IMG/VR virus record: IMGVR_UViG_3300031951_000022
Coordinates: 32,001 to 96,000 of that record
Direction: 5' to 3' (one strand)
DNA: 64,000 nucleotides
Source of the DNA: a virus
The notes under the pieces were generated by a model. It had not been told where the DNA came from, made no database searches, and saw only the letters and a program-made list of their open reading frames with translations. The position numbers were made by a program, and so were the translations under genes. Shown piece by piece: positions 837 through 28,855 of the stretch. Every line of letters starts with the position of its first letter. The first letter of the stretch is position 1.

Positions 837-1859
837 TTACTCTTTAAGCAAAAAATCGTTATTGATAGCCTTAAAACTAACTTCTCCACAAAAACTACGA
901 ATAACAATTCCCTCACGATCCTGAGAATCTTTCGCAGAAGGGAAGTGGGTTTTATACTTACCCTTTGCCATCTCCAATAGATCGGTTTTAGTATATCCGA
1001 AACTTGAGCCTTTGTCAACTATAGGAACAAAATTCAAACCAAGTTGAGAGGTTACAATTAAAGATTTATCTAAACATAATTTTTGACCTGTTCTAATATC
1101 TACCACATTAAATATATAAAGATCAACATGAGATAATCCTAATGGGTTTTTTTGAATACCCGGCCCAACAACTTCTCCCTGTAATGCTAGTCTGTGACCC
1201 TTTTCCCAAAAATTCCTTAAACCCTGCTCAATATTGTATTTTCTACTTAAGACCCAAAAGTTATGGGTGTCGTTTTCTTTATAGGAGAAATTTCTTCCAC
1301 AAACATGATAAGTTTCATCTTTGGGATCAATTAAAAATGTACTAGAAGTACCATCTAATTTAAGACTAATATAATAAGGTTGTCCAGTTAATCTTTCAAT
1401 AAAACCATATTCATCATCTAATTGAACCCGTATTTCATCTGTTTTACTTATGGGCCATATGAATTTCTTAGCATCTCCAGATATAGAAGTTGGGATGGGA
1501 GGATCATATTTTTCAATACCCAATAGGTCTGTAACATCAGCCCCAGCGGTCAATCCTGCTAGTATAGGAAAGACACTTATGGGTAATGCCAAGCCCTGAC
1601 TAAGTTGTTTCTTTAATTTACAACTCTTTAAACGATATTTTTTTAGATTATCATTCCAACAACTCTTACGAAGGAATTCAAATTCTGGAAGTTCTGGAAG
1701 TAAACTATCTATCTCTATAAATAGACAAGTATCACCGGGTTGAAATTCACCCTTTTTACTAACAACTTCCCAACCTAAAACACCAACAGTTTCTATACTG
1801 TCTGCATCTGGTATAGATTTAACATATTTCACAGTTTGTATACTTGCTAGTTTTCTCAT
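837..1859 (-). CDS. ATP-dependent RNA ligase (DRB0094/Rnl2-like)
   Basis: N-terminal MRKLASIQ/IEIDS module; nucleotidyltransferase motif I KLDGTS, QGEVVG, EGIVIR and FKAINNDFLL. Confidence 0.88.
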   Translation of the reverse strand: MRKLASIQTVKYVKSIPDADSIETVGVLGWEVVSKKGEFQPGDTCLFIEIDSLLPELPEFEFLRKSCWNDNLKKYRLKSCKLKKQLSQGLALPISVFPILAGLTAGADVTDLLGIEKYDPPIPTSISGDAKKFIWPISKTDEIRVQLDDEYGFIERLTGQPYYISLKLDGTSSTFLIDPKDETYHVCGRNFSYKENDTHNFWVLSRKYNIEQGLRNFWEKGHRLALQGEVVGPGIQKNPLGLSHVDLYIFNVVDIRTGQKLCLDKSLIVTSQLGLNFVPIVDKGSSFGYTKTDLLEMAKGKYKTHFPSAKDSQDREGIVIRSFCGEVSFKAINNDFLLKE

Positions 1860-12992: not shown

Positions 12993-15900
12993 TTCTTTTC
13001 TCCGATAATACTATACAAAAAATCGGCCAATCCCTTAATTTGCTTGTTTCCATAGACAAATATTATTTTAGAATCACTATCATAGTGAGATAGTTCTATA
13101 ACGTGTTCATCAAAATGAGATTTAACTATAATTTTAATTTTATTATCTTGATCTTGATAGTAACCTGTTTCTGGACTATTCATGCTCAATTTTCCAAATT
13201 ATATTATGAAATGTTTTTTCTCCGTCCACGGCAGGATAACAATAGATCATAACCATAAATAAAGAACCGCCAAAATATAAAAATGTCATATCTCCAGTAA
13301 TATCAATCATTGGTTAATAATCCTTTTGGTCATACAGTTCTGGGTATTCTTTGGTTAGTTTGTCTCTAGGATCAAAGTCTTGATTAAATTCTTCACAAAC
13401 AAAAGCATAAAATTCATATCCTTCATATTCACTCTCTTGATAACGTCCCTGCTCTTTATCGTATTTAACAACAAGTTCTTTTAGTTTATTTAGAAAATCG
13501 GTTTGTTCAGCAGTTTTTCTAACTTTTTCTTTGTGAAGTTCTAATTCTTCTTGGGTTAATTGGTAAAAATAAATATCTGCCTCTTCTCTAATTTTGTCGG
13601 CTATTGCACTATTTAGTTCTTCATCACTCATAGAGTATAATAGTTTCCAACATTCATACAATTTATCTAAATTAGTCATTTCTTTTTCCCTATTATACAA
13701 TTTTAATATGCAGATATAACCATGAGATTATTTCAATAATTTTCCAAATACCAACAATAGACAATACAAACATAATAGCGAGTGGAAGTATCAGTCCTTT
13801 AAAATTAATATCAATCATTTATTTCTCCAACTATCATATATAATAGGTTGACCATTTTCATCTTGACCAATAATTGGCCTAGTATGACTCCAACCTTCTT
13901 TTGGTTTCTTGTCTCTAATAAAGTTGAAACAATCTTTTAGATTTTCCTTACTAAAAGACATAATATCATTTACATATTTAGTCAAATTTTGACTACCATC
14001 TTCAGTATAAATATTCCAATCGTTCTCCTTCATCCAGTTATTATATGCAATATGTGCAGATCTACTACTTTTAAAGCTATCAATCAATCTAAACTCAAAA
14101 ATATCAATTCGTCTAATAATATCTTGTCCATAAACCAATTCGTTGCCTTGTGGTTTTCCATATTTCTGATTATATGTCATTTACATTTTCCTTTTGTCTC
14201 AATCATATCGTCTACAATAACTTGATTGCATTTATATCCACACAAATAATGATGATTATTAGCCAGAACTATTTTTCGCCATGTACTCTGAAATGCTTCT
14301 GGATTTTCACTAATCCAAGCACGATAAATTTCACAGGCTTTTTTAACTGTGTCAAATTGATCAACTATCCAAAATTGAGTGGTGATATTTTCTTTTTCGA
14401 TTTGTCTTAAAATATAGTTTCCATACAGAAACTCATTACCTTGTGGTTGGCCGTATTTTTCAGTAAGAGTTAGATTCATTTTTCTTTCCATGACATTGAA
14501 TTACTCCAAATTCATCAACATAACAATTGTCTAATGATTTTGTTCTTTCCACTAATTTTTCAATTCCACCAACCGGCCCGTCTACTATTTCTTTCATGAT
14601 TTTATTACATTCAATAATACTGTTATAAAGAATCATGATCTCTTCATATTTATCGTCTGGTATTGAGCCAAGAGGTAATGGAATTATACCCAATCTTTGC
14701 AAATTGTCAAGTTGTTCCTGTAAGATTGTTTTGATATCGTCAATATCTTCGTTAGTCATTATTTTTTTCCAGTTTTTTCATATCTTCTTTTAGTCTTTTA
14801 TGAAAACATTCTTCTCCATCATCATCAGAAAGTAGCCAATCAATCCTTTGAGCATAAATGGCTGCTTTTTTAATAAGATTAACGGCATTACGAAATTCTA
14901 CAATTGTAAGAGGATCTTTAAAATCCCACTGAAGATTATCGTCCCATTCTGATTTTTTCTTATTTTCATAATCCAGAATAACTTGTTCAATACTATCAGC
15001 GATAGCATTTAGTTCATATTGTTTGTAATCAAAATATCCACCGCTCATAAGTTTTTCTCCAAAAAGAATTTAGTCATTATTGATTTTCCTTCATCCATTC
15101 ATAGAAAGCCTTGTTCGCATCAAGATAGTTATCGAAATAGGCCACCTTTTTAAATCTATGCACTCCAACCATTCTGAGAATTAAACGTCCCCAAATCAAT
15201 TCATTGCCTTCTGGCTTGCCCCACATTTCAGTATACTTCATTCTACTTCCCAACTTTCAATTTCCATATCATAATATCCATTACGATAGTACGAAGTATC
15301 ACCATAGCGTTCTCTTTTACCTTTAGCCAATTTATTATCAGATACAAACTTTGTTGCATCACTAAAGTCTGAGAATACTTGTACAATTTCCTTATCTGGA
15401 TGGGGCAAAAACGGCCCACCTATTTCATCTTGAAAAACATTTTCTTTTGTGCCAATAACAATATAAACTATCATTTCTTTTCTCTAATAGTTTCCCACGA
15501 ACAATTTGGAGGCATAAGTTCTGGTTCTGAAAATGTTATTTTTGTAACCCTAATATTTTCATCAAACACAACAGCAGGGCCAGTAAAAGTAGCCTTTATA
15601 GTATTATTAAATTCTAATGTCACAGACTGTATCATGCTATTTGTTTTTATAGTTTTAATTTCCTTATTAAGTTTATTTATCACTATATCAGGCTCAAGAA
15701 TACTATCTTCTATTTGTTGTTTAGAAAATTTCATTATTTTTTGCAATGGTTTTGATTAATTTTATTGCTTCTATTAAAGTTGCATTTTCACAATCCCTTT
15801 TACAAAAAGAACTGTGACTTTGACCACAAGGCCCAGTACAGTTTATTTTACGCAATTCTTCTAGTCTGTCAACTAATGGTTTTTTAAGCCATTCGGCGGG

Positions 15901-16458
15901 ATTGTTGTATATTGTATTCATTTCTTTTCCTCAATAGTTTCCTTTAACAAACTAATAGCCGTTTCTAAAAATGAATAATAATCGGCCAATCCCCAACTAT
16001 CCTCATTAAACATAGAACGATAGTCTGTTAAAAATTCTTTAATATTATTTTCAAGTTGAATGTTCATTATTTTGCTCCAGCATATTATTCAAATATTTAG
16101 CTAAATTTTCCACATCAGTTTCAGTCCAAGAATAAAAATTTACATTAATAGTGCGACTGTTACCAAAATGCTCAATATCCAGTTGATAACTTTCCAGAGC
16201 GTCAAGAATTAGACCAACCTCATGCTTATCAAGATTAATATTCATTAGTTTTCATTTCTTTTGATTTGTGGTTTATTTGCCACTAAAGGCTATTTGATTT
16301 CTTGGTTCAGTGGGTTTTTTACCACCTATTTGTCTTAAAAGAATATGAGCATTAGTATAATTTGGGTCATTTTTAGACCGTTTTTCTACCAAATACCATC
16401 CTAGAACTTGTTGTAAAAGTTCCATTTCACTATCGGTCAAAAGAATAGATTTATACAT
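12989..16458 (-). CDS. run of small hypothetical proteins, including three KYG.P.GNE paralogs (13815-14180, 14177-14491, 15077-15241) and 15238-15474 (paralog of 6513-6749)
   Basis: Packed ORFs with shared N-terminal motifs. Confidence 0.65.
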
Positions 16459-17001
16459 TTTTCCCCTAGAATAATCAACTTCACCATATTACTACTAGTA
16501 GCAGTATATCCTATGGGTAGTAGGTTGTCAATGGGGATTATCGGTCATTTCCCGCAGTGGTCTTTAATTAGTTTTTTCACCACGGGTAATAGCGATAAGT
16601 TAAAACGGCGAAAATAAAGGCGAAAGTTAATGCTAAAACTTAATCAGCGTTCGCTTTTGGTGGAAATGTCAGATGGAAATGTGGTAAAAGCTTGGTTTTT
16701 ATAGGGGGTTGAATATAATTTCTGAACAAAATATGGCACAGAAAGCATTGAAACTATGGTGCAGAGAGTGATAAATATCAGTGAATTGATAAAAGGCTGA
16801 TGAAATTGTCTCATTTTGTATTTTCCCCTTTTACTATAAAGTAGGTGGCTATGGTGCAGAAAATGTATGTGGATAGTAGTATGATGTAGAATGTTGTTTC
16901 AGTCATGACCATATTCATTATATAAAAAGATATAACATAAACCAAAAAATGCTAAACAGACCGGGAAAATTATGTGACTATATTGATGCAAATATCCTAA
17001 G

Positions 17002-19122
17002 TTATGGTGAGCCATAATATTTCATGATTCTGTATAGTAGTGTTAGTGATATTACTATTGTTGATCCAATTATAAATCCCCTAGTAAATTCATCGTGAAT
17101 TAATGTGGGGCAAAGCGGCCTATTGACAATACTAGATAGAAGTGGTATAATACCATTCATCAGTCCAATCCCATTAGTTCCTTTAGTCTTTTCCACATAG
17201 ACTTGGAGGGAATAGTATTAATATCAGTTGAAGGAATGACCGGAGTTGGTTCGCCACAAACCTTTTCTCTAGAGCATTTCCTTGCACAACTTTTCTTAGT
17301 ACTAGATTTTACTTTTTTCTTAACGGGCTTAATTTTTTTCTTTGCCATATTTCTCACTGACTGTTCTCATAATTCAAATCTATTATATTAGGTGAGACTA
17401 TCGCCTTGGTATGTTATTTTAGGTAAAGGGTTATCTTCAGCATAGTCTGATACTTTTTGTAACTTGACCACTAGAAGTAAACTATCTTTTTCTTCATTAG
17501 GCACTGATCCTACTAGTCTTACTATGTCTGAAAATAATTTTCCGGGGTTAATATCTAGAGTTTGTAATTTATAATAAACCATAAAATCTCGCTGACTACG
17601 ATCAAAAAAATCAAACCCGACAAGATAGGCTGAGACAATCCCATGACCTATCTTACCGGGCCTATAAAATTTACTAACTATAAGTTAAGGAAAAATTCAC
17701 TATCCGGAGTTTTCCACTTATGAATTTTGGGTAGTTTAATAGCTTTAGTTATTCTACCCCTATTGTCTTTGTGGTGAGCTATAATATGAATTTTACCATC
17801 TTCATTTCTAAAGCTCCAATTGTAGTTTCTAATTATGTTTTCGGGACTAGTTTCATTATCATATATCTCACCCATTATATGAAATGTAATAACCCGATTA
17901 AATAGTCTAGGCATTGGTGGCCTCCTCTATTAATTCTTCGATATGAATATCGCTCATTAACATAGGATCACGCCGCATAATTTCATACTCTAATTCTTCA
18001 TTAGACATATAGTGCTTATCTTGCATCAAGCATTCTTTTAGTCTGCTTTTTATATCCAAAAAATGCATACCACCAACTATATCATCAACATATCTTTCAA
18101 TAACATAATCACGGTTGAAACTATCAATCTTATACATAGGTCACCTCATAGAAAAGTTAAAAAATACTCATCTATGATTCCAATTGTTCCCCATCGCCAC
18201 AACGGGTAACTATCGGCTCCGTAGTTATATTGTATTTTACTTGACGAGATGAAGAGGTCAAATCTTTTTTCTTATGTTGTCATCTTAATCCTATTCATGG
18301 TGGTGGTTAAAGTGGTGTTCGTGATGACCCGTGAATTTTAAAAAAATGTCCTATAAGTTGACCAGTAAGCCTTAGGAGTGGTTTTATGATTCTCAAGAGC
18401 CTTCAACTCTCGCTGACTATGTCCAACCAGGCGAATCCGGCGGATGGGCTGAGACAATTAGTTAAAGTTTTCTAAGAACTTAAGTTGTATTTAACAAAAA
18501 GTTTTGGGCTTGACAGCACTAGATGAGAGATTATATATTATGCAGAGGGGGCATTAATCATTACTTAGTTATTTATATCTCTTACTCCTAGTATAACTCC
18601 TAAGATTCCACTCAGAGCAAAAGTAATAGTTAGCATAAGAATCCTTTAAGAATGAACAAACTGGACAACCAACTTCCCCATTGTACCATAAAACAGACAG
18701 TACGCAACCCCAAGCGCCACAAGGAGTTGTAAACTGTCAAGAAGTTTGATACAGTCCAATAGTGATATTATCATCCCTATAGACATCACCAAATTCAAAA
18801 TCGGGCATTTCTATATTAGGATCAAATTCAGTAATAAATTCTCTTGCATAAGCCACAGCATCAGAAGAATTATTGAATACTTTAACTTGAGCAACACTAT
18901 TATCTTGACAATAAACAAAAGCCCACATGTTTAGTCCTCCAGAATATCAGGATAGTATTCTTTAATTTCTTTCTGTAAATCCCCAATACTCATATTCTCC
19001 TTATTCTCAACCAACATACTATAAGCAAAAGAGTACAGAGTATCAAAGTCCATATCTTCTAAGAGTCTTGAAGCATACACACGAACAATATCAGTAATAT
19101 TATCTTCAGTTATTTTAATCAT
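17002..19122 (-). CDS. small hypothetical proteins (17002-17159 region, 17160-17357, 17388-17582, 17678-17914, 17907-18137, 18737-18928, 18931-~19122)
   Basis: ORF track; several have RBS-like sequences. Confidence 0.55.
17587..17638. repeat. family-2 repeat copy 1 (TCTCGCTGACTA...GGCTGAGACAA)
   Basis: Four copies, at 17587, 18408, 19210 and 28856. Confidence 0.8.
18408..18457. repeat. family-2 repeat copy 2
   Basis: tctcgctgacta..gcgaatccggcggatgggctgagacaa. Confidence 0.85.
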
Positions 19123-21416: not shown

Positions 21417-21464
21417 AACATCTCCTATAAACCTATCTTACACCATCTAGAGAAACTTGTCAAG

Positions 21465-21537
21465 TGGGCCCCCAGGGACTCGAACCCTGAACCTAAGAGT
21501 TAAAAGCTCCTTGCTCTGCCAATTGAGCTAGAGGCCC
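21465..21537 (-). tRNA. tRNA-Lys(UUU)
   Basis: Cloverleaf; anticodon loop CU-UUU-AA. Confidence 0.93.
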
Positions 21538-21759
21538 GAACCTTATTCTACAACAGAGTAACTATAACTATCCACATCATCCATATAAGCAGCCTGTACC
21601 CTGTCAAATACATCCATATAATTAAAGTCAAGACTATCCATAGATATAATCAAATCGGTCAAACTCTGTCCTTCACTATTAAGAATATCATAGATATGAA
21701 CATTCTTCATCTATTCTCTCCTTTTTGATTATCATACCGTGTCCGAATCATTCTGTCAA

Positions 21760-21831
21760 TAGCCCTATGGAGAATCGAACTCCAATCTCCACCTTGAAAG
21801 GGTGGCGTCATAGCCATTAGACTATAGGGCC
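21760..21831 (-). tRNA. tRNA-Glu(UUC)
   Basis: CCACC-CUUUCAA-GGUGG anticodon arm. Confidence 0.93.
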
Positions 21832-21865
21832 ACAAACCATCGTAACTCTAACGTCAGCCTCCGAA

Positions 21866-21939
21866 TAGGGCGTGTAGGAGTCGAACCTACCTTTTGAATA
21901 CCTTATAAGAGTATGTGCAACTACCGGCTGCAACGCCCC
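21866..21939 (-). tRNA. tRNA-Ile(UAU)
   Basis: AUACU-CUUAUAA-GGUAU anticodon arm; T loop UUCGACU. Confidence 0.85.
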
Positions 21940-21991
21940 ATGTTTCTTAGATCATACTCTCTTTATCGGCTGTTGTCAACTACTTCTTTAG

Positions 21992-22078
21992 CGGAATCTG
22001 AGGGATTCGAACCCCCGGAGGATTTTAACCCTCGGCGGTTTAGTAAACCGCTGCCTTAAACCACTCGGCCAAGATTCC
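21992..22078 (-). tRNA. tRNA-Ser(ACU), long variable arm
   Basis: GCGGU-UUACUAA-ACCGC; class II variable arm; G73. Confidence 0.88.
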
Positions 22079-22080
22079 AA

Positions 22081-22151
22081 CAAAGGCGGAAGGAATCGAA
22101 CCTTCATCTACGGTTTTGGAGACCGTCATTCTACCGTTGAACTACGCCAAT
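22081..22151 (-). tRNA. tRNA-Trp(CCA)
   Basis: ACGGU-CUCCAAA-ACCGU; two U-U mismatches in the acceptor stem. Confidence 0.82.
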
Positions 22152-22154
22152 AAA

Positions 22155-22226
22155 CTGCCCGACTAGGACTCGAACCTAGAACCTACAAATTAACAGTTTG
22201 CCGCACTACCATTGTGCTATCGGGCA
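22155..22226 (-). tRNA. tRNA-Asn(GUU)
   Basis: GCAAA-CUGUUAA-UUUGU; U1-A72. Confidence 0.92.
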
Positions 22227-22294
22227 ATAACTTGGTGTATAAAATGGTAACACACCATACAAGTATACACCTATTCTACCAAAAGGATTCATAA

Positions 22295-22801
22295 ATGCAA
22301 GCCAAACCAAGAAAAAATCGTAGTAAAATATGGTCAATGCCAGTAGATGATTTTAAATTATTAGTATCACAAAGTTCTACAATAGGCGAAATTTTATCAT
22401 ATTTTAAATTACGAAATAAAGGAGGTAATAGTAATACAGTTAAAAGACGTATTAAATATGAAAATATTGATATATCTCATATAAAACTTGGTAAAGGGTC
22501 CAATAAAGGTAGAACATTTAAACCCCGAAGATCCAATCAAGAACTTTTTACAAAAACATCTAATGCTCAAAACAAAGATCTAAAAAAGAGAATCTTAAAA
22601 GATAAACTATTACCATACCAATGTGAGTGTGGTTTATCACATACATGGAATAATAAACCATTAATATTACAACTAGATCATATCAATGGAAATCCACAAG
22701 ATAATAGGCTATCAAATTTACGATTTCTATGCCCAAACTGTCACAGTCAAACAGAAACATATGCTTCAAAAACTAGATGCCCGGCTAGGAGTCGAACCTA
22801 G
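22295..22801 (+). CDS. HNH homing endonuclease inserted in the tRNA cluster
   Basis: LQLDHINGNPQDNRLSNLRFLCPNCHSQT. Confidence 0.9.
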   Translation: MQAKPRKNRSKIWSMPVDDFKLLVSQSSTIGEILSYFKLRNKGGNSNTVKRRIKYENIDISHIKLGKGSNKGRTFKPRRSNQELFTKTSNAQNKDLKKRILKDKLLPYQCECGLSHTWNNKPLILQLDHINGNPQDNRLSNLRFLCPNCHSQTETYASKTRCPARSRT

Positions 22802-22849
22802 AACCCGCTGGTCCAAAGCCAGCTGCTCTACCAATTAAGCTACCGGGCA
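22777..22849 (-). tRNA. tRNA-Gln(UUG)
   Basis: GCUGG-CUUUGGA-CCAGC; U1-A72. Confidence 0.92.
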
Positions 22850-23068
22850 ATTATTATTTATCTCTATGAGAACCACTATCTTTCCTACTATCTCTCAAAT
22901 ACTTAGCCGCCTCTATCATCCAATATCCCATTTTTTCAATTTTATCTGCTTCTTTACCAGTAAGGTATGATGCAGTATGAATAAAAATATACTCTATCTT
23001 ACCTTTAGATACTATATCTAGTACCCCAACTGTACTATCAATAAATTGTTCTGGTTTTTTCATATCTA

Positions 23069-23140
23069 AGCCCACAGAGGGAATTGAACCCCCATCCGAT
23101 GATTACAAATCAACTGTAATAGCCATTATACTATGCGGGC
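23069..23140 (-). tRNA. tRNA-Thr(UGU)
   Basis: Anticodon loop UU-UGU-AA; acceptor GCCCGCA/UGUGGGC. Confidence 0.9.
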
Positions 23141-23174
23141 AGACTACATATCATACTCATTACGCCATGCTCTG

Positions 23175-23549
23175 TCAATATCTTGACGTGTACGCTGGCG
23201 TTTGGGTCTGTTGTCCATAAGCGTATCTCGGTGTTCGCGGTGGCCCGTTGGGAGTTCCCACTGGTGTTTGGTTTTGACCTTGATATTGCCGTACTTGCGG
23301 CGAGGACGCATATCGTCGTTGTTCTGGGGCGTAATCATACCATAATCCATCTTCGTGTTTATAAAAAACCTTATCTACGTTAGGGTCATACGCCATTAAG
23401 CAGTATTGTATAGGATAAATTACCTTTGTCAACTCTTTTTTTTCTTGCAGAGCTGGCAGTTTAATTTCACCCTTTTGATAATCTTTTACACCATTCCACA
23501 CAAAACCGATCAAAGCAATAGCTACGCCAATCCATTGTATCATACGTTC
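23175..23549 (-). CDS. hypothetical membrane-anchored protein; the overlapping 23144-23350 ORF is also plausible
   Basis: TM segment MIQWIGVAIALIGFVW. Confidence 0.5.
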   Translation of the reverse strand, partial: ERMIQWIGVAIALIGFVWNGVKDYQKGEIKLPALQEKKELTKVIYPIQYCLMAYDPNVDKVFYKHEDGLWYDYAPEQRRYASSPQVRQYQGQNQTPVGTPNGPPRTPRYAYGQQTQTPAYTSRY

Positions 23550-23620
23550 ATTCCATGTCAAGAGCCTTTTCCGTCCCATAGAAGAATTATCGGCCATCTC
23601 CTTTTCAATCTTTAGCTTTT

Positions 23621-23702
23621 CCTAAGTCTTTGCGGGGCAACAACTTACGGCAAATCGGGCCGGCCCGGCCACGCCTAAGTCCTTACGTGGCAACGGGTTA
23701 CG
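23621..23702. repeat. double-palindrome element copy 3
   Basis: 23621-23649 + 24 bp + 23674-23702. Confidence 0.9.
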
Positions 23703-23703
23703 A

Positions 23704-23937
23704 TCACTTTTCCATAGTCCACTTAGCCTTTTTCACAACCTTCTCTGTTTTATATACCTTAGTATCTGGTAATGCTGAAACATAGTCTTTAAATCCACGC
23801 TCATCTATATAAAAATACTCATCTAATATATCAAACTTATTAGTTTCCCATAAAGCGTCACACGCTGCCCCAAGAGGACTTTTATTAGTAGAATAAATAA
23901 GTTCTAAGGTGTTGCTCTTAATATAATACTTAGGCAT
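23704..23937 (-). CDS. hypothetical protein (likely start MPKYYIK)
   Basis: Start overlaps the stop of the kinase-like gene. Confidence 0.6.
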   Translation of the reverse strand: MPKYYIKSNTLELIYSTNKSPLGAACDALWETNKFDILDEYFYIDERGFKDYVSALPDTKVYKTEKVVKKAKWTMEK

Positions 23938-24541
23938 ACTCTGGTTCCTCATGTTGACCACAACAGGCTTCACAGTTACAGTATGTGTTCTCCGAACCCT
24001 CCCAACAAACTTCGGGCCAATCACTTTCGTCAACTGGTGTTAAACTTTCTCGCCCAAAATCAATAACCACCAATACTTTTTCTTTACCTCTTTTAACATA
24101 TCCTAAATTATTCTCATGGGCATCAGTATAAGAGATACCATTATCCTCCATGTCGTTCAACAAATCTTGTATAGCATAATAATTAGAACACAAATCATTA
24201 CAGGCACAATCTCCATCACAATCCATAACGTCTTTACAGACATAAGGCTTTGCAATTTCGGTCAAATATCCCCAGTCGCTCAATACCATTTCCGTAACTG
24301 TAATCATCTCACCCTTGTCATTCTGCTTAACAAAATAATTAGGTATTCTAATCCTACAAACAGGACTATAAACCCTTGGGGCCATATATGGAGCTAAATG
24401 ATCCTGAACAGCATGAGCAAAAGAGGCCAAGCTTTTATTAGGAAAACTTTTGAAGCCATAGCTTTTACCTTTTACCTTATAAAAAGCATTTTGGCTACCA
24501 GCGTCTTGATATTTTCCAACATAACTATATTTAGTAGGCAT
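23930..24541 (-). CDS. protein-kinase-like (ePK/APH fold) protein
   Basis: Gly loop AGSQNAFY, GFK (VAIK-like Lys), catalytic DAHENN, VIDFG. Confidence 0.72.
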   Translation of the reverse strand: MPTKYSYVGKYQDAGSQNAFYKVKGKSYGFKSFPNKSLASFAHAVQDHLAPYMAPRVYSPVCRIRIPNYFVKQNDKGEMITVTEMVLSDWGYLTEIAKPYVCKDVMDCDGDCACNDLCSNYYAIQDLLNDMEDNGISYTDAHENNLGYVKRGKEKVLVVIDFGRESLTPVDESDWPEVCWEGSENTYCNCEACCGQHEEPEYA

Positions 24542-24550
24542 GATATTCTC

Positions 24551-25264
24551 TTAGTGGGAGGGAAACAAGACATTAGCCAAACCACGCGGACACAAATCAC
24601 AATGTACACTATTTTTGGTTTTGGTGCAAGTCACGACACCTCGACCACGACGGATTTCTGGACAAGTAATAAACTTCTCACCCTCCAACACAACCAGCTT
24701 CGGCAGTGCTGCTCTCCATGCGTCGGCTTTAGCCTTACTGCGAGGACGCTTGGGAGCGATTTTAGTATCACTATCGCACCATGCAAAAAGTTTGAAACCA
24801 GCCTCTTTCGCTTGTTTCATATCTTCGCCATCGTGGATACTAGCATACATATTTATGTACTTGCCAAGTTCAGTAGACAGCCGAGTATCATAGATATGGG
24901 TATAAGCCCACATGGTCGGCAGACTACCACCACTAGCAAGAATACTCTCACAAGCCCACAATACATTATTGACATATTCATTGTCGAGTTGACCGTCTTT
25001 AAAAAAGTCGCCACGTTCATGCCAGCGAACATCTTTATTTTTCTTGACAGCATCTACGAGCATCGCACGGATACGATTTTTTTCCGTGATAAGATTTTGC
25101 ATAGCAGCAGGACGAACACCGGGATAGATATTTTCCAAATCCTCAGCATAGCATCCGTTCCCGAGAAAATCACAATCGGGAGGACAAGTATCGCCAACAG
25201 GACGACTCACTACGATACAGTTTTCCTTACCCAACTTATCGTTACCATTTGCCGTTTTCATCAT
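24551..25264 (-). CDS. gp88-like Cys-rich phage protein
   Basis: GN.KLG, TCP..C....CYA, VRWHERGDF, WAYTH, CP....C..C motifs. Confidence 0.6.
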   Translation of the reverse strand: MMKTANGNDKLGKENCIVVSRPVGDTCPPDCDFLGNGCYAEDLENIYPGVRPAAMQNLITEKNRIRAMLVDAVKKNKDVRWHERGDFFKDGQLDNEYVNNVLWACESILASGGSLPTMWAYTHIYDTRLSTELGKYINMYASIHDGEDMKQAKEAGFKLFAWCDSDTKIAPKRPRSKAKADAWRAALPKLVVLEGEKFITCPEIRRGRGVVTCTKTKNSVHCDLCPRGLANVLFPSH

Positions 25265-25344
25265 GCTTCTCCTAGCGTGTCTCTCGATTCTACACTATAT
25301 GATCGACAAGTCAAGAGAGAAACTTTAGCAGAGAAAAATTTAAG

Positions 25345-25426
25345 CGTAAGTCGTTGTGTGGCAAGCACTTACGTCAAGGCCGGCCGCCCGGATTTGCCCT
25401 AAGTCCTTATGCGTAAAGAACTTAGG
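25345..25426. repeat. double-palindrome element copy 4
   Basis: CGTAAGTCGTT-GTGTGGC-AAGCACTTACG + 24 bp + CCTAAGTCCTT-ATGCGTA-AAGAACTTAGG. Confidence 0.92.
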
Positions 25427-25481
25427 AGAAGCTCACAAGCTTTTAAGAATTGTTCGGTAGCTTCTGCGTGATTATTCATAA

Positions 25482-25553
25482 TAGCCCCAAGAGGAATCGA
25501 ACCTCTAATCACTGCTTAGAAGGCAGTTGTTATGTCCATTTAACTATGGGGCC
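25482..25553 (-). tRNA. tRNA-Arg(UCU)
   Basis: ACUGC-CUUCUAA-GCAGU. Confidence 0.92.
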
Positions 25554-25617
25554 ATAATACCGATAGCCGCCAGTATTACCAGCGGCGTATCGGATTATTA
25601 TAGCACAGGTGCTAGGT

Positions 25618-26158: not shown

Positions 26159-26530
26159 TCAAGAAAGAAAACCCTCACAACCCAAGTCCCTCATTTCACG
26201 AAGAAGAAAAAGAGCCTTTTCAGGAGTATTCAGAGTGATGCTCTGCTTGGCATTTGGATTACCAGCAACATGCCTATCGCCCTGAAATCCACCAGTAAAA
26301 ACATCGGTCCAATCCTTGCTCTCTTTCAATCCCCAGCCAGTAGCGGCACGAATAGCCTTAATGCAAGGGATTCGGTTGTCAAGAGTCATACCACCAGTAA
26401 TGGTAACGGTCTTGTTCTGGTTCACACCAAGAGCAACCTCAAAAGCGGTTACGATCCGCTCATAGATTTCCAGATTGCAGTTCGTCGCAAGATTCATAGC
26501 CTCACGAACACTCAGTTCCAACTTAATCAT
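26159..26530 (-). CDS. ribosomal protein L7/L12 C-terminal-domain-like protein
   Basis: RIPCIKAIRAATGWGLKESKDWTD matches bL12 KI.VIK.VR..TGLGLKEAK..V. Confidence 0.75.
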   Translation of the reverse strand: MIKLELSVREAMNLATNCNLEIYERIVTAFEVALGVNQNKTVTITGGMTLDNRIPCIKAIRAATGWGLKESKDWTDVFTGGFQGDRHVAGNPNAKQSITLNTPEKALFLLREMRDLGCEGFLS

Positions 26531-27005
26531 ATATTCCAAAACTTTCTGTATATTTAGGTTCGATCTCGTAAATACCGTCAAAATTTCCATTTCGTTCTTC
26601 TAGGACATATACCTGTTTACCACCAGTAATCAAGGTATCATATTCACTATTGTCCCAAATAAACTCATTGTTATCGCTTTCTCGTCGCCAGTGTGGGTCA
26701 CGAAGTGGATTATAATACAGCTTTTCCAGATTGTCAACAGGCAAAATCGGATAAAAACTTTTTCTCAACATAAATTCTTCACATCTTACCCATCCACTCA
26801 CATCATGCACACCAGCCTCAAATACCTGTTTAGCCTTATTGGGTCTATTCCACAGTTTACAACCCCGCATTTCTAACTGATACTCAGCAGGGTCATAATA
26901 GTACACATCGACAGTTTTACCGCCTTGCTTCACTTTCACTTGCCAAAACTTATAGTTTGGCCCATTACTAAGGTGAAATCTAACTTCTGCATGAAGATTT
27001 TTCAT
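26523..27005 (-). CDS. hypothetical protein
   Basis: 160 aa ORF overlapping the next gene start. Confidence 0.7.
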   Translation of the reverse strand: MKNLHAEVRFHLSNGPNYKFWQVKVKQGGKTVDVYYYDPAEYQLEMRGCKLWNRPNKAKQVFEAGVHDVSGWVRCEEFMLRKSFYPILPVDNLEKLYYNPLRDPHWRRESDNNEFIWDNSEYDTLITGGKQVYVLEERNGNFDGIYEIEPKYTESFGIYD

Positions 27006-27070: not shown

Positions 27071-27535
27071 ATGTCAATACCAGAAACGAAAGTCTGTGCA
27101 AAATGCAAGATAGAAAAATCGGCTAATGAATATAGTATAGTTAAAACAAAAAGAGGTAAATATAATCCTCATTTAAGTAGCCGTTGTAAATTATGCAGAG
27201 CGGAGGACCAAACCAAACACCGCAAACCATACGATTCAGATTATGCTCTATCTTGGAAGTCTAAAAATCCGGATAAAGTTAAACAATACCAAAAAGATAT
27301 CTATCAAAAAAGAAAGTTACGTTGGGAAAACTTTATGAAAACACAAAAATGTAGTAGATGCGGCATATCTGATTATCGAGTCTTACAATGGCATCATATT
27401 GATCCATCAACTAAAACTATGACAATAGGCGCCCAAGCAAGACAAGGAAAATGGAATCAAATCATGGAAGAAGTCAAAAAATGTATTTGCGTCTGTGCTA
27501 ATTGTCATTTTATTCTTCATTCTGAAGAAAATTAA
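27071..27535 (+). CDS. HNH homing endonuclease
   Basis: CSRCG...LQWHHIDP...EVKKCICVCANCH. Confidence 0.87.
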   Translation: MSIPETKVCAKCKIEKSANEYSIVKTKRGKYNPHLSSRCKLCRAEDQTKHRKPYDSDYALSWKSKNPDKVKQYQKDIYQKRKLRWENFMKTQKCSRCGISDYRVLQWHHIDPSTKTMTIGAQARQGKWNQIMEEVKKCICVCANCHFILHSEEN

Positions 27536-27703
27536 TTATTTCCTACTTTTAGGATTATCAACAGCCTCTGCTAACTTTTCCCACAGATCCTCTACCAGTT
27601 GTTGATTACAGTCAACAGCTCTAAAAGGAACGTAATAAATAGCGTCCAAAAACTCATTGACAAGTTGTTTTAGTTCTTGGAGTTCAATACTTTCAGTTTT
27701 CAT
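27536..27703 (-). CDS. hypothetical protein
   Basis: RBS AAGGAG and promoter TTGACT-N16-TATAAT at 27723-27750. Confidence 0.6.
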   Translation of the reverse strand: MKTESIELQELKQLVNEFLDAIYYVPFRAVDCNQQLVEDLWEKLAEAVDNPKSRK

Positions 27704-27750
27704 CTTTCTCTCCTTTGTCACCATTATACCATTCTTTATCGGTAAGTCAA

Positions 27751-28352
27751 GTACCACCACACTGATAGTTTTACGAAGAATACGTGGTACTGTATTGTCT
27801 TCAACCTCAAGGTTTTACCTTATCTAAGGAAACTATCAGCAGAGTTGTAACCAGCGGAACTTTTTACGCCCCAGTTCCTATAACCCACCAATACCCCGAT
27901 ATTATGAACCCTTGGAGCAAGGTAAACACTGGTGGAAACCGCCCACGGAAACCTCCCTGTAACCGGATGAACTGCTAGCATCATGTTCCGGTTAGTCTGG
28001 CTCTTGGTGACGGTTACTGGTTGTATTGTATATGGCAACGTTTTTAGCCTATCACAGAGGATGGGAAGGGCGAACGTTTTTAATCCTAACCTATTATCTA
28101 GGAACCATAATAATCATCGTGGTGAGGATGCCATCCCCCATAGATTGGTACTTCTATCTAACGTATAACTCCGTTAGCAACCCCACGCTGCATAACAGCC
28201 GTAGGTTTATCGAAATAGGTTATCCCAATCTAGTCCCGCCGCATGGACCCACGAAAGTTTGTCATAGTACGCTAGGTTTAGTGCTGCTTCTCTATCCTAG
28301 CACGGCTTAGTATGATGTTATCTCTGGCACTTAACCGCTATGTTTGTATTGT
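27751..28352 (-). ncRNA. candidate large (~600 nt) structured ncRNA (ROOL/GOLLD-like size and context)
   Basis: No credible ORF; own TTGACA promoter at 28359-28386; many nested helices and a 3' pseudoknot. Confidence 0.65.
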
Positions 28353-28427
28353 GTCACCAATATAGCATACGTTCTTGGTTTGTCAAGCGTACAACACCGA
28401 ATGAATCGGATTTTCGTTGGTGACTAG

Positions 28428-28529
28428 GGGCGAAGGGTGGAATCGAACCACCTCATGGGCATTTGCTTGCCTACTCCACTGGTCAGTGTCTCGGAACTTC
28501 CCACACGCTACCATTACGCTACATTCGCC
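28428..28529 (-). ncRNA. tRNA-like RNA with a ~40 nt expanded anticodon loop
   Basis: Acceptor GGCGAA/UUCGCC, D loop AAUGGUA, stem GUGGG/CCCAU, T arm GGUGG-UUCGAUU-CCACC. Confidence 0.65.
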
Positions 28530-28589
28530 ATGTCTTACTCTATCATTCTACACTCTATTATCGGCTTGTCAAGAGGGTTTCTTGAATTT

Positions 28590-28796
28590 TTAGTTGGCAG
28601 ACGGAGACAAAACCTTTTCGGCCGTTTCCACAATATAATTCATCATCACCTTTTGCAAAACCTTTTCTGCCAAAAAAATAGCATTAGCCTTATCCATATT
28701 ACCCACACCTTGCATTTGAGCAATACTTACCACAGTTCCAGTAAACTCCATAATTTCTGCCAGAACCATATCGCTTTTAGTTGGTACAGCAATCAT
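28590..28796 (-). CDS. hypothetical protein
   Basis: RBS GAGGAG; promoter at 28816-28844. Confidence 0.65.
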   Translation of the reverse strand: MIAVPTKSDMVLAEIMEFTGTVVSIAQMQGVGNMDKANAIFLAEKVLQKVMMNYIVETAEKVLSPSAN

Positions 28797-28855
28797 GATT
28801 TTCTCCTCTATTAGGATTCTACACTATGAATTAATGCTTGTCAAGGGTACGCAAA

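Follow-up and report, generated by a model that had tools for sequence, protein, structure and literature searches.

GOLLD (RF01998) and ROOL (RF03087) are gene-free, highly structured phage RNAs that are often found beside tRNA genes, and both are single large RNAs of fixed architecture. Other non-coding RNAs include a tRNA mimic, namely the YrlA Y RNAs (RF02553), which go together with Ro60/Rsr and whose RNA ends lie away from the tRNA-like part, and tmRNA with its tRNA-like domain. The tRNA-like structures of plant viruses such as TYMV have an acceptor pseudoknot at the 3' end. RNAC and RNAD of phage T4 (species 1 and 2 RNAs), which are matured together with the tRNAs, are small non-coding RNAs located beside the tRNA genes of a large lytic phage. 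Their functions are still unknown, and they are classed as late (PMC9697503). Engineered tRNA scaffolds that carry an insert in the anticodon arm are recognized and processed by E. coli factors, and the embedded RNA is protected (PMC3753655). In addition, a survey from 2023 reported 8,495 unnamed candidate RNAs from IMG/VR (PMC10690425), some of which may overlap the modules described here.

Here we describe a locus in an uncultured freshwater phage of 158 kb that can be compared with each of these systems. Like GOLLD and ROOL, it is gene-free, highly structured and located beside tRNA genes, but it is a string of independent 90-180-nt units and is matched by neither covariance model. With T4 RNAC and RNAD it shares the position of small non-coding RNAs beside phage tRNA genes; unlike these, it strings together five to seven modules that share a conserved linker and reshuffle freely, blastn of the region finds no T4 sequence match, and the array lies among early-type sigma70 promoters, whereas the T4 RNAs are late (PMC9697503). 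Modules T and B recall the engineered scaffolds in combining an acceptor-like helix and D-like and T-like arms with a structured insert at the anticodon arm or loop, yet they are natural, the body of B has diverged (a helix of 5-6 bp, unmatched by the tRNA model) and their processing is a prediction. The locus differs from YrlA and tmRNA in that there is no Rfam match, no ARAGORN tmRNA call and no TROVE/Ro60 gene (PF05731), and in that a module ends at the acceptor-like helix. The 3' tail of module E pairs with a hairpin loop as a pseudoknot, as in the TYMV-type structures, but E lacks a CCA end and a tRNA-model match, comes from a DNA phage and has a promoter directly behind it, so that the likeness is topological only.

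Genomic Setting of the Locus

The window, i.e., the whole stretch of 64,000 nucleotides that was analyzed and to which all positions refer, was taken from a virus record in IMG/VR (157,712 bp, rated complete), of which it covers bases 32001-96000. In the genome, PHROGs identify a large terminase and tail-fibre proteins. Neither blastn of the region nor tblastn of a 727-aa structural protein gave a match among 50,697 cultured-phage records (T4 included), hence the phage appears to have no cultured relative. The array sits within a long minus-strand block of small genes, which is dotted with near-consensus sigma70-type promoters (29089, 28844, 28572, 28386, 27750, and 27077). Proximity to tRNA genes, which had entered the comparison with GOLLD and ROOL in the first-pass annotation, is borne out by nine tRNA genes at 21464-25554 on the same strand (ARAGORN); in none of these true tRNA genes is the 3' CCA encoded. 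The ARAGORN calls in the window include tRNA-Ser(ACU) and tRNA-Ile(UAU).

A conserved 160-aa neighbor (26523-27005) was used to gather 80 syntenic IMG/VR loci; this protein has no match in Pfam, PHROG, NCBIfam, the PDB sequences or the Atlas, and its model is poor (pLDDT 58) and gave no Foldseek match in the PDB at E ≤ 0.001. A conserved 143-aa protein (26159-26590, minus strand), present in 79/80 syntenic loci, resembles the C-terminal domain of ribosomal protein L7/L12 over a short segment, though below threshold (Pfam, 24.2 bits where 25.9 is required; TIGR00855, E = 9e-4). An HNH homing-endonuclease gene (27071-27535, plus strand; phrog_2255, E = 1e-25) converges on the 55-aa ORF directly downstream of the array and is found in only 9/80 syntenic loci. 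Further away, the window encodes a 340-aa ATP-dependent RNA ligase of the Deinococcus DRB0094 type (837-1859, minus strand; TIGR02306, 154 bits against a cut-off of 151; PF09414, E = 6e-21), which could be an RNA-repair or RNA-joining enzyme, as predicted from its sequence, and contains a stretch of ~3 kb (15760-18930) without ORFs of at least 80 aa on either strand, which could hold small genes or a further non-coding region. Genes for Ro60 (TROVE, PF05731), a CCA-adding enzyme and RtcB were not found in the 157.7-kb genome.

A Strand-Specific Non-Coding RNA

The first-pass annotation had proposed that 27751-28352 is a gap without a credible reading frame that encodes a highly structured RNA of ~600 nt behind its own promoter. 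The gap is indeed free of genes, its longest ORFs, both starting with TTG, measuring 72 aa on the RNA strand and 94 aa on the complementary strand, and the promoter was confirmed (internal promoter in Table 1). Coding-type conservation is absent from homologs, as frames are not consistently kept open in the sets compared (B, 47 sequences; D, 36), whose members differ in length by non-multiples of three; a coding reading was rejected, since the frame is conserved in neither set. The six helices named in the annotation are fully complementary on the minus strand (6/6, 8/8, 6/6, 8/8, 10/10, and 7/7 pairs), and five of them, including the 3' pseudoknot, are also backed by covariation in relatives, whereas the remaining helix, which closes module E with 10 bp, is conserved and barely covaries.

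The region belongs to neither GOLLD nor ROOL, as cmscan gave no match at the gathering threshold in the whole window or at E ≤ 10 in 27300-28800, and matches to RNase P RNA, tmRNA and group I introns were likewise absent, as were tmRNA calls by ARAGORN. On its RNA strand, 27751-28352 has no Rfam match at E ≤ 10, and the sole match near the region is a weak tRNA at 28429-28528; in 20 related array loci, searched at E ≤ 1, only tRNAs were matched and neither GOLLD nor ROOL. The other suggestion, a new class of RNA, holds insofar as the region is absent from Rfam, but the locus is better described as a succession of several small RNA families, each of them new.

The minus strand folds with z = -2.27, with 1 of 20 shuffles equally good, and the plus strand with z = +0.36. 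Folding energy is by itself modest evidence, and the real support comes from covariation in relatives. Many helices contain G-U pairs, which are mismatched on the opposite strand, and some pairs alternate between A-U and G-U (examples of G-U are 34/45 sequences at B columns 149/162 and an invariant U-G in P1 of module D), which fits an RNA of the minus strand only. All nhmmer matches to modules in the related loci lie on the strand of the promoter. The region is thus a conserved, structured, strand-specific and promoter-led non-coding RNA of the minus strand.

Independent Modules in Changing Order

In addition to the 80 syntenic loci, an exact-pattern scan with the core of D yielded 70 IMG/VR contigs and three MAG contigs, and the core pattern of B was found on >119 metagenome contigs, every one of at least 1 kb. 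The region never aligns as a whole: BLAST and nhmmer matches break at 28352, 28262, 28117, 28029, 27849, and 27751, which delimits modules A-E, and upstream of these T and S (Table 1), which form part of the same unit. A terminal helix of its own closes each module, and each is present as a single copy, with no second copies found in the genome of the window. The three MAG contigs, from GTDB, carry D (L082, L083, and L084), two of them also B (L083 and L084). Their bins are inconsistent (Anaerolineae, "bacterium" for a 141-kb contig, Alphaproteobacteria), and they are probably mis-binned phage DNA; as clues to a bacterial origin or to the host they were rejected, since there are only three and their taxonomy is inconsistent.

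Table 1. Features of the array and of its flanks, in the order of transcription (positions in the window).
Feature	Position	Strand	Description
Promoter before T	28545..28572	-	TTGACA-16-TAGAAT, sigma70-type, 11/12 positions matched
Module T	28426..28537	-	tRNA-Glu-like RNA; core 28429-28528; structured insert of ~40 nt replaces anticodon loop
Segment S	28353..28425	-	Long conserved hairpin (GUCACCAA...UUGGUGAC) enclosing the internal promoter
Internal promoter	28386-28359	-	TTGACA-16-TATATT, 11/12 positions, TG ahead of -10
Module A	28263..28352	-	Linker ACAAUACAAAC, then three-helix RNA with loop-loop pairing
Module B	28117..28262	-	tRNA-shaped, 146 nt
B P1 (closing helix)	28253-28249/28122-28118	-	
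B D-like hairpin	28248-28245/28236-28233	-	4 bp, 8-11-nt loop
B long branched arm	starts 28231-28225/28148-28142	-	In anticodon position
B T-like hairpin	28138-28135/28127-28124	-	
Module C	28030..28116	-	Rare two-hairpin RNA of ~87 nt, closed by AUGG.../...CCAU
Module D	27850..28029	-	Linker ACAAUACAA, then four-way junction; 180 nt
D P1	28020-28016/27855-27851	-	
D P2	28015-28011/27941-27937	-	
D P3	27935-27930/27890-27885	-	
D P4	27878-27874/27860-27856	-	Conserved loop GGGGCGUAAAA
Module E	27751..27849	-	99 nt; closing stem, two hairpins, pseudoknot
E closing stem	27839-27830/27771-27762	-	10 bp; conserved, little covariation
E pseudoknot	27790-27784 + 27757-27751	-	Loop of hairpin 2 with 3' tail, 7 pairs
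Promoter after E	27723..27750	-	TTGACT-16-TATAAT, 11/12 positions, TG; abuts 3' tail of E

Of 271 loci searched with nhmmer, 247 contain B and 226 contain D, compared with 71 for E, 36 for T, 10 for A and 9 for C. The 187 distinct related arrays fall into 39 architectures, the commonest being BD and B-x-D, where x denotes gap segments, in which eight or more additional sequence clusters recur; those of their members that were inspected likewise consist of a linker and a closed structure. The order in the window, T-S-A-B-C-D-E, is unique among the 187 arrays, and 21 arrays have only B and six only D. As judged from these comparisons, the modules evolve and reshuffle independently of one another, and hundreds of uncultured lake-phage contigs share and reshuffle the module families, none of which is in Rfam.

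Both the breaks at fixed module borders and the 39 architectures speak against the single RNA of ~600 nt that the first-pass annotation had envisaged. A large multi-domain RNA that works unprocessed like GOLLD and ROOL (~600 nt, or ~790 nt with T and S) would be in keeping with the one promoter at the 5' end, with the lack of any promoter scoring at least 10/12 between the modules and of any terminator-like site inside or after the array of the window, with the direct adjacency of the modules (0-10 nt separate the closing helices), and with B followed by D as the commonest order. The modules nevertheless also occur alone and in many combinations, T is placed between D and E in L018-type loci, no conserved pairing between modules was seen, and the 3' tail pairs within E and not with A, as the fold of the single sequence had suggested. 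Together with the missing Rfam match to GOLLD or ROOL, this leaves one large unprocessed RNA as an unlikely reading.

The surroundings of the arrays bear on another explanation, namely that early mRNAs carry the array as a structured leader or spacer, which stabilizes, insulates or regulates in cis and gives no free-standing RNAs. No terminator separates the array from the downstream genes, it lies in a same-strand run of near-consensus early promoters, and E abuts the next promoter in several relatives, the junction of the window recurring in L034, L003, L002, L078, and L062. However, the downstream 55-aa ORF (27536-27703) is driven by its own promoter (27723..27750), different things follow the arrays in different phages (promoters, palindromic elements or tRNA-like genes), and the flanking ORFs p55 and p68 are present in only 2/80 and 4/80 syntenic loci, respectively, compared with 61/80 for B and 55/80 for D. 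We therefore consider a role solely as leader or spacer to be very unlikely.

tRNA-Like Bodies in Modules T and B

T belongs to the tRNA family by its Rfam score (RF00005, 32.5 bits against a gathering threshold of 29), with a 40-nt insertion. Its cloverleaf, with all four arms, is 96.9% paired in 18 distinct sequences, compared with 40-61% in slid controls, and 11/20 pairs show double changes. T has no readable anticodon, as the 7-nt anticodon loop is replaced by ~40 nt, and ARAGORN makes no tRNA call on T in the window, which marks it as a tRNA derivative rather than a decoding tRNA. The branched insert varies from ~15 to 45 nt across relatives, and the alignment register of its hairpins differs between subfamilies; the homolog in L002, with a short insert, is read as tRNA-Glu(UUC). 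The promoter segment before T is kept in many related loci, and the S hairpin is kept downstream of T in relatives. The outer stem of S covaries, being GCCACCAA/UUGGUGGC in L013 and GUCGCUAA/UUAGCGAC in L202, while the -35 box inside S is present in some relatives and replaced in others though the hairpin is kept. Only transcripts that start at the upstream promoter and read through S can fold into this hairpin.

In B, the elements follow the order of a tRNA, i.e., acceptor, D, anticodon, variable (a 3-nt joiner) and T, and a T-like hairpin of 4-5 bp is separated from the 3' strand of the closing helix by one nucleotide. Across 45 sequences, 95.4% of cells are paired, compared with 34-43% in slid controls, and double changes occur in 18/32 pairs, which 0/500 shuffles reach. 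In an independent metagenome set, collected with a covariance model and comprising 90 further distinct sequences, the values are 97.5% and 36-45%. The start of the D-like loop (AUGC) and the end of the T-like loop (GCRU) are complementary in 30/38 B loop pairs, an arrangement suggestive of an elbow contact. Purine+CCA follows B in 100/165 arrays (61%); the B of the window lacks CCA and is followed by A-UGAU instead. Cloverleaf-sized mini-B versions of 73 nt exist, which ARAGORN does not call as tRNAs. Moreover, the acceptor-like helix has 5-6 bp and not 7, and neither B nor D has a match to the tRNA model (RF00005) at E ≤ 10. B thus has a tRNA-like layout and is not a demonstrable tRNA homolog.

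Relatives carry tRNA or tRNA-like genes within or beside their arrays. ARAGORN tRNA-like calls with abnormal anticodon loops, i.e., with 2- or 4-base "anticodons" or a shifted position, were obtained in L005 (4106-4180), L020 (3833-3910), L022 (3993-4070), and L080 (672-750); those in L005 and L080 directly follow D, and those in L020 and L022 overlap the 3' part of an E-type module.

Modules A, C, D, and E

The core of D is nearly invariant, and the arms within P2 and P3 are exchanged wholesale between subfamilies. Pairing amounts to 87.9%, compared with 22-49% in slid controls, and to 96.2% compared with 15-46% in an independent set, with double changes in 11/20 pairs; D is never followed by CCA. 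E was found as 26 distinct sequences in its 71 loci. In 13 sequences of the window type, 97.6% of cells are paired, and the pseudoknot is 95.6% paired, with double changes in 3/7 pairs (CAC/GUG to CGA/UCG, and A-U to G-C), so that the 3' pseudoknot of the first-pass annotation is genuine. In a second subfamily of E (GGGGUCGGAUAG... type), pairing between loop and tail is no better than in shuffles, hence the pseudoknot is supported for the window-type subfamily only. B, D, T, and E all pass the shuffle and slid-partner controls.

For A, compensatory changes were read by eye in six distinct homologous sequences. The closing helix CAUAG/CUAUG is replaced by AGUAG/CUACU or CGUAG/CUACG, the helix GCUAGG/CCUAGC, one of those named in the first-pass annotation, by GACAAG/CUUGUC, and the loop pair GUGC/GCAC by GCGA/UCGC in L199. 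For C, a homolog has AGAGUU/AACUCU in place of the helix AACGUU/AACGUU, but its nine loci hold only five distinct sequences, which are too few for a firm test. On the alignments, the helices of the array are kept by compensatory changes.

Unpaired motifs are conserved as well. CGUAAAA is invariant or nearly so in the T-like loop of D (27862-27868), GUAAAACU is invariant in the junction of E (27767-27773), and CGUA(U)AAA-like strings are also found in two extra module families of relatives; the recurrent CGUAAAA-type string may represent a shared binding or tertiary motif.

These observations bear on whether the region could lack an RNA function altogether and represent tRNA genes in decay or an element that acts at the level of DNA (for example an origin, or a site of packaging or recombination). 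tRNA genes are close by, related arrays contain degenerate, weak tRNA matches (29-43 bits), and the HNH homing-endonuclease gene adjoins. Set against this are compensatory changes that keep the helices across 70-90 distinct sequences, G-U pairs that make the structure specific to one strand, and invariant unpaired motifs, which together argue for purifying selection on a folded RNA and not for decay. Judged by the covariation in the alignments, decay or a DNA-level element is largely refuted and, in our estimate, extremely improbable.

Linkers Between Modules

Most modules follow an unpaired, A/C-rich linker of the (N)CAAUACAA type. Before D, the consensus is CAAUACAA, with 72-100% conservation per position, and before B it is ACAAAC(A/U)U; the extra modules that were inspected are also preceded by (N)CAAUACAA. 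AATACAA has a density of 3.57/kb inside arrays and of 0.166/kb outside (~21-fold), and such leaders are absent from the true tRNA genes of the window. A strong promoter (at least 10/12 positions) lies directly upstream of 69/173 arrays, with the -10 box 8 or 17 nt ahead of the module start, so that the linker would be located at or near the 5' end of the transcript. ACAAUACA occurs three times in the region, at the places given in the first-pass annotation, with ACAATACA starting on the minus strand at 28352, 28029, and 27798; the whole 157,712-bp genome contains 15 copies of ACAATACA on both strands. Two of the ACAAUACA copies are conserved linkers. The third (27791-27798) lies within a hairpin stem of E and was rejected as a linker, since it is not conserved in relatives and looks like a chance occurrence.

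Proposed Processing and Function

The explanation that we favor, and consider probable, is a non-coding transcription unit that gives rise to a polycistronic precursor of separately folding RNA modules, which would be cut into stable small RNAs. The promoters at 28572 and 28386 would drive one precursor comprising T, S, A, B, C, D, and E, and the tRNA-maturing machinery of the host would cut it, with RNase P acting at the 5' base of the closing helices, in addition to 3' trimming. These enzymes are proposed because of the tRNA body of B and T and the purine+CCA with which B usually ends. A tRNA-like substrate of RNase P would show an acceptor-like helix stacked on a T-like hairpin and a 3' RCCA; B has a closing helix of 5-6 bp, a T-like hairpin at a distance of one nucleotide, and RCCA in 100/165 arrays, though not in the window. 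For D, E, A, and C, whose shape is not obviously that of a tRNA, processing by RNase P is less likely, and, as no terminator follows the array, it could stay within longer early transcripts.

In the favored precursor reading, the tRNA-like body may serve as a scaffold for processing and stabilization, with the swapped-in arms carrying the function. The module RNAs might then act as decoys or binders of host factors that recognize tRNAs, e.g., tRNA-cleaving defense nucleases. Among possible functions we tentatively rank this one first, at low confidence and with weak support, because tRNA-cleaving defenses and their counteraction by phage tRNAs are documented (PMC11464382, PMC11555353) and a DRB0094-type ligase is encoded. 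A more speculative variant, which strikes us as rather unlikely, is a natural "tRNA-scaffold" display system, in which exchangeable RNA cassettes of an operon would be cut at the shared CAAUACAA linker by tRNA-maturing enzymes of the host, and tRNA-like bodies (T and B) would present aptamer-like arms to bind and neutralize host factors, e.g., tRNA-cleaving defense nucleases. If this variant were true, the reshuffling of cassettes between phages would amount to an arms race at the RNA level.

Implications for Large Phages

Large phages are known for a few unexplained stable RNAs near their tRNA genes, and the locus described here is a much richer version of this, with at least six well-defined RNA families and at least eight clusters that resemble further families, all of them outside Rfam. 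The families follow a common plan, a shared linker and then a closed structure, and are shuffled among hundreds of freshwater phage contigs. Two of them, T and B, are tRNA or tRNA-like bodies in which the anticodon arm or loop has become a structured insert, which resembles the design that engineers use for stable RNAs. Irrespective of function, B, D, E, and T could enter Rfam as new families and lend themselves to structural work. If the modules are processed and act on host factors that recognize tRNAs, they would constitute a new class of RNA-based phage counter-measures.
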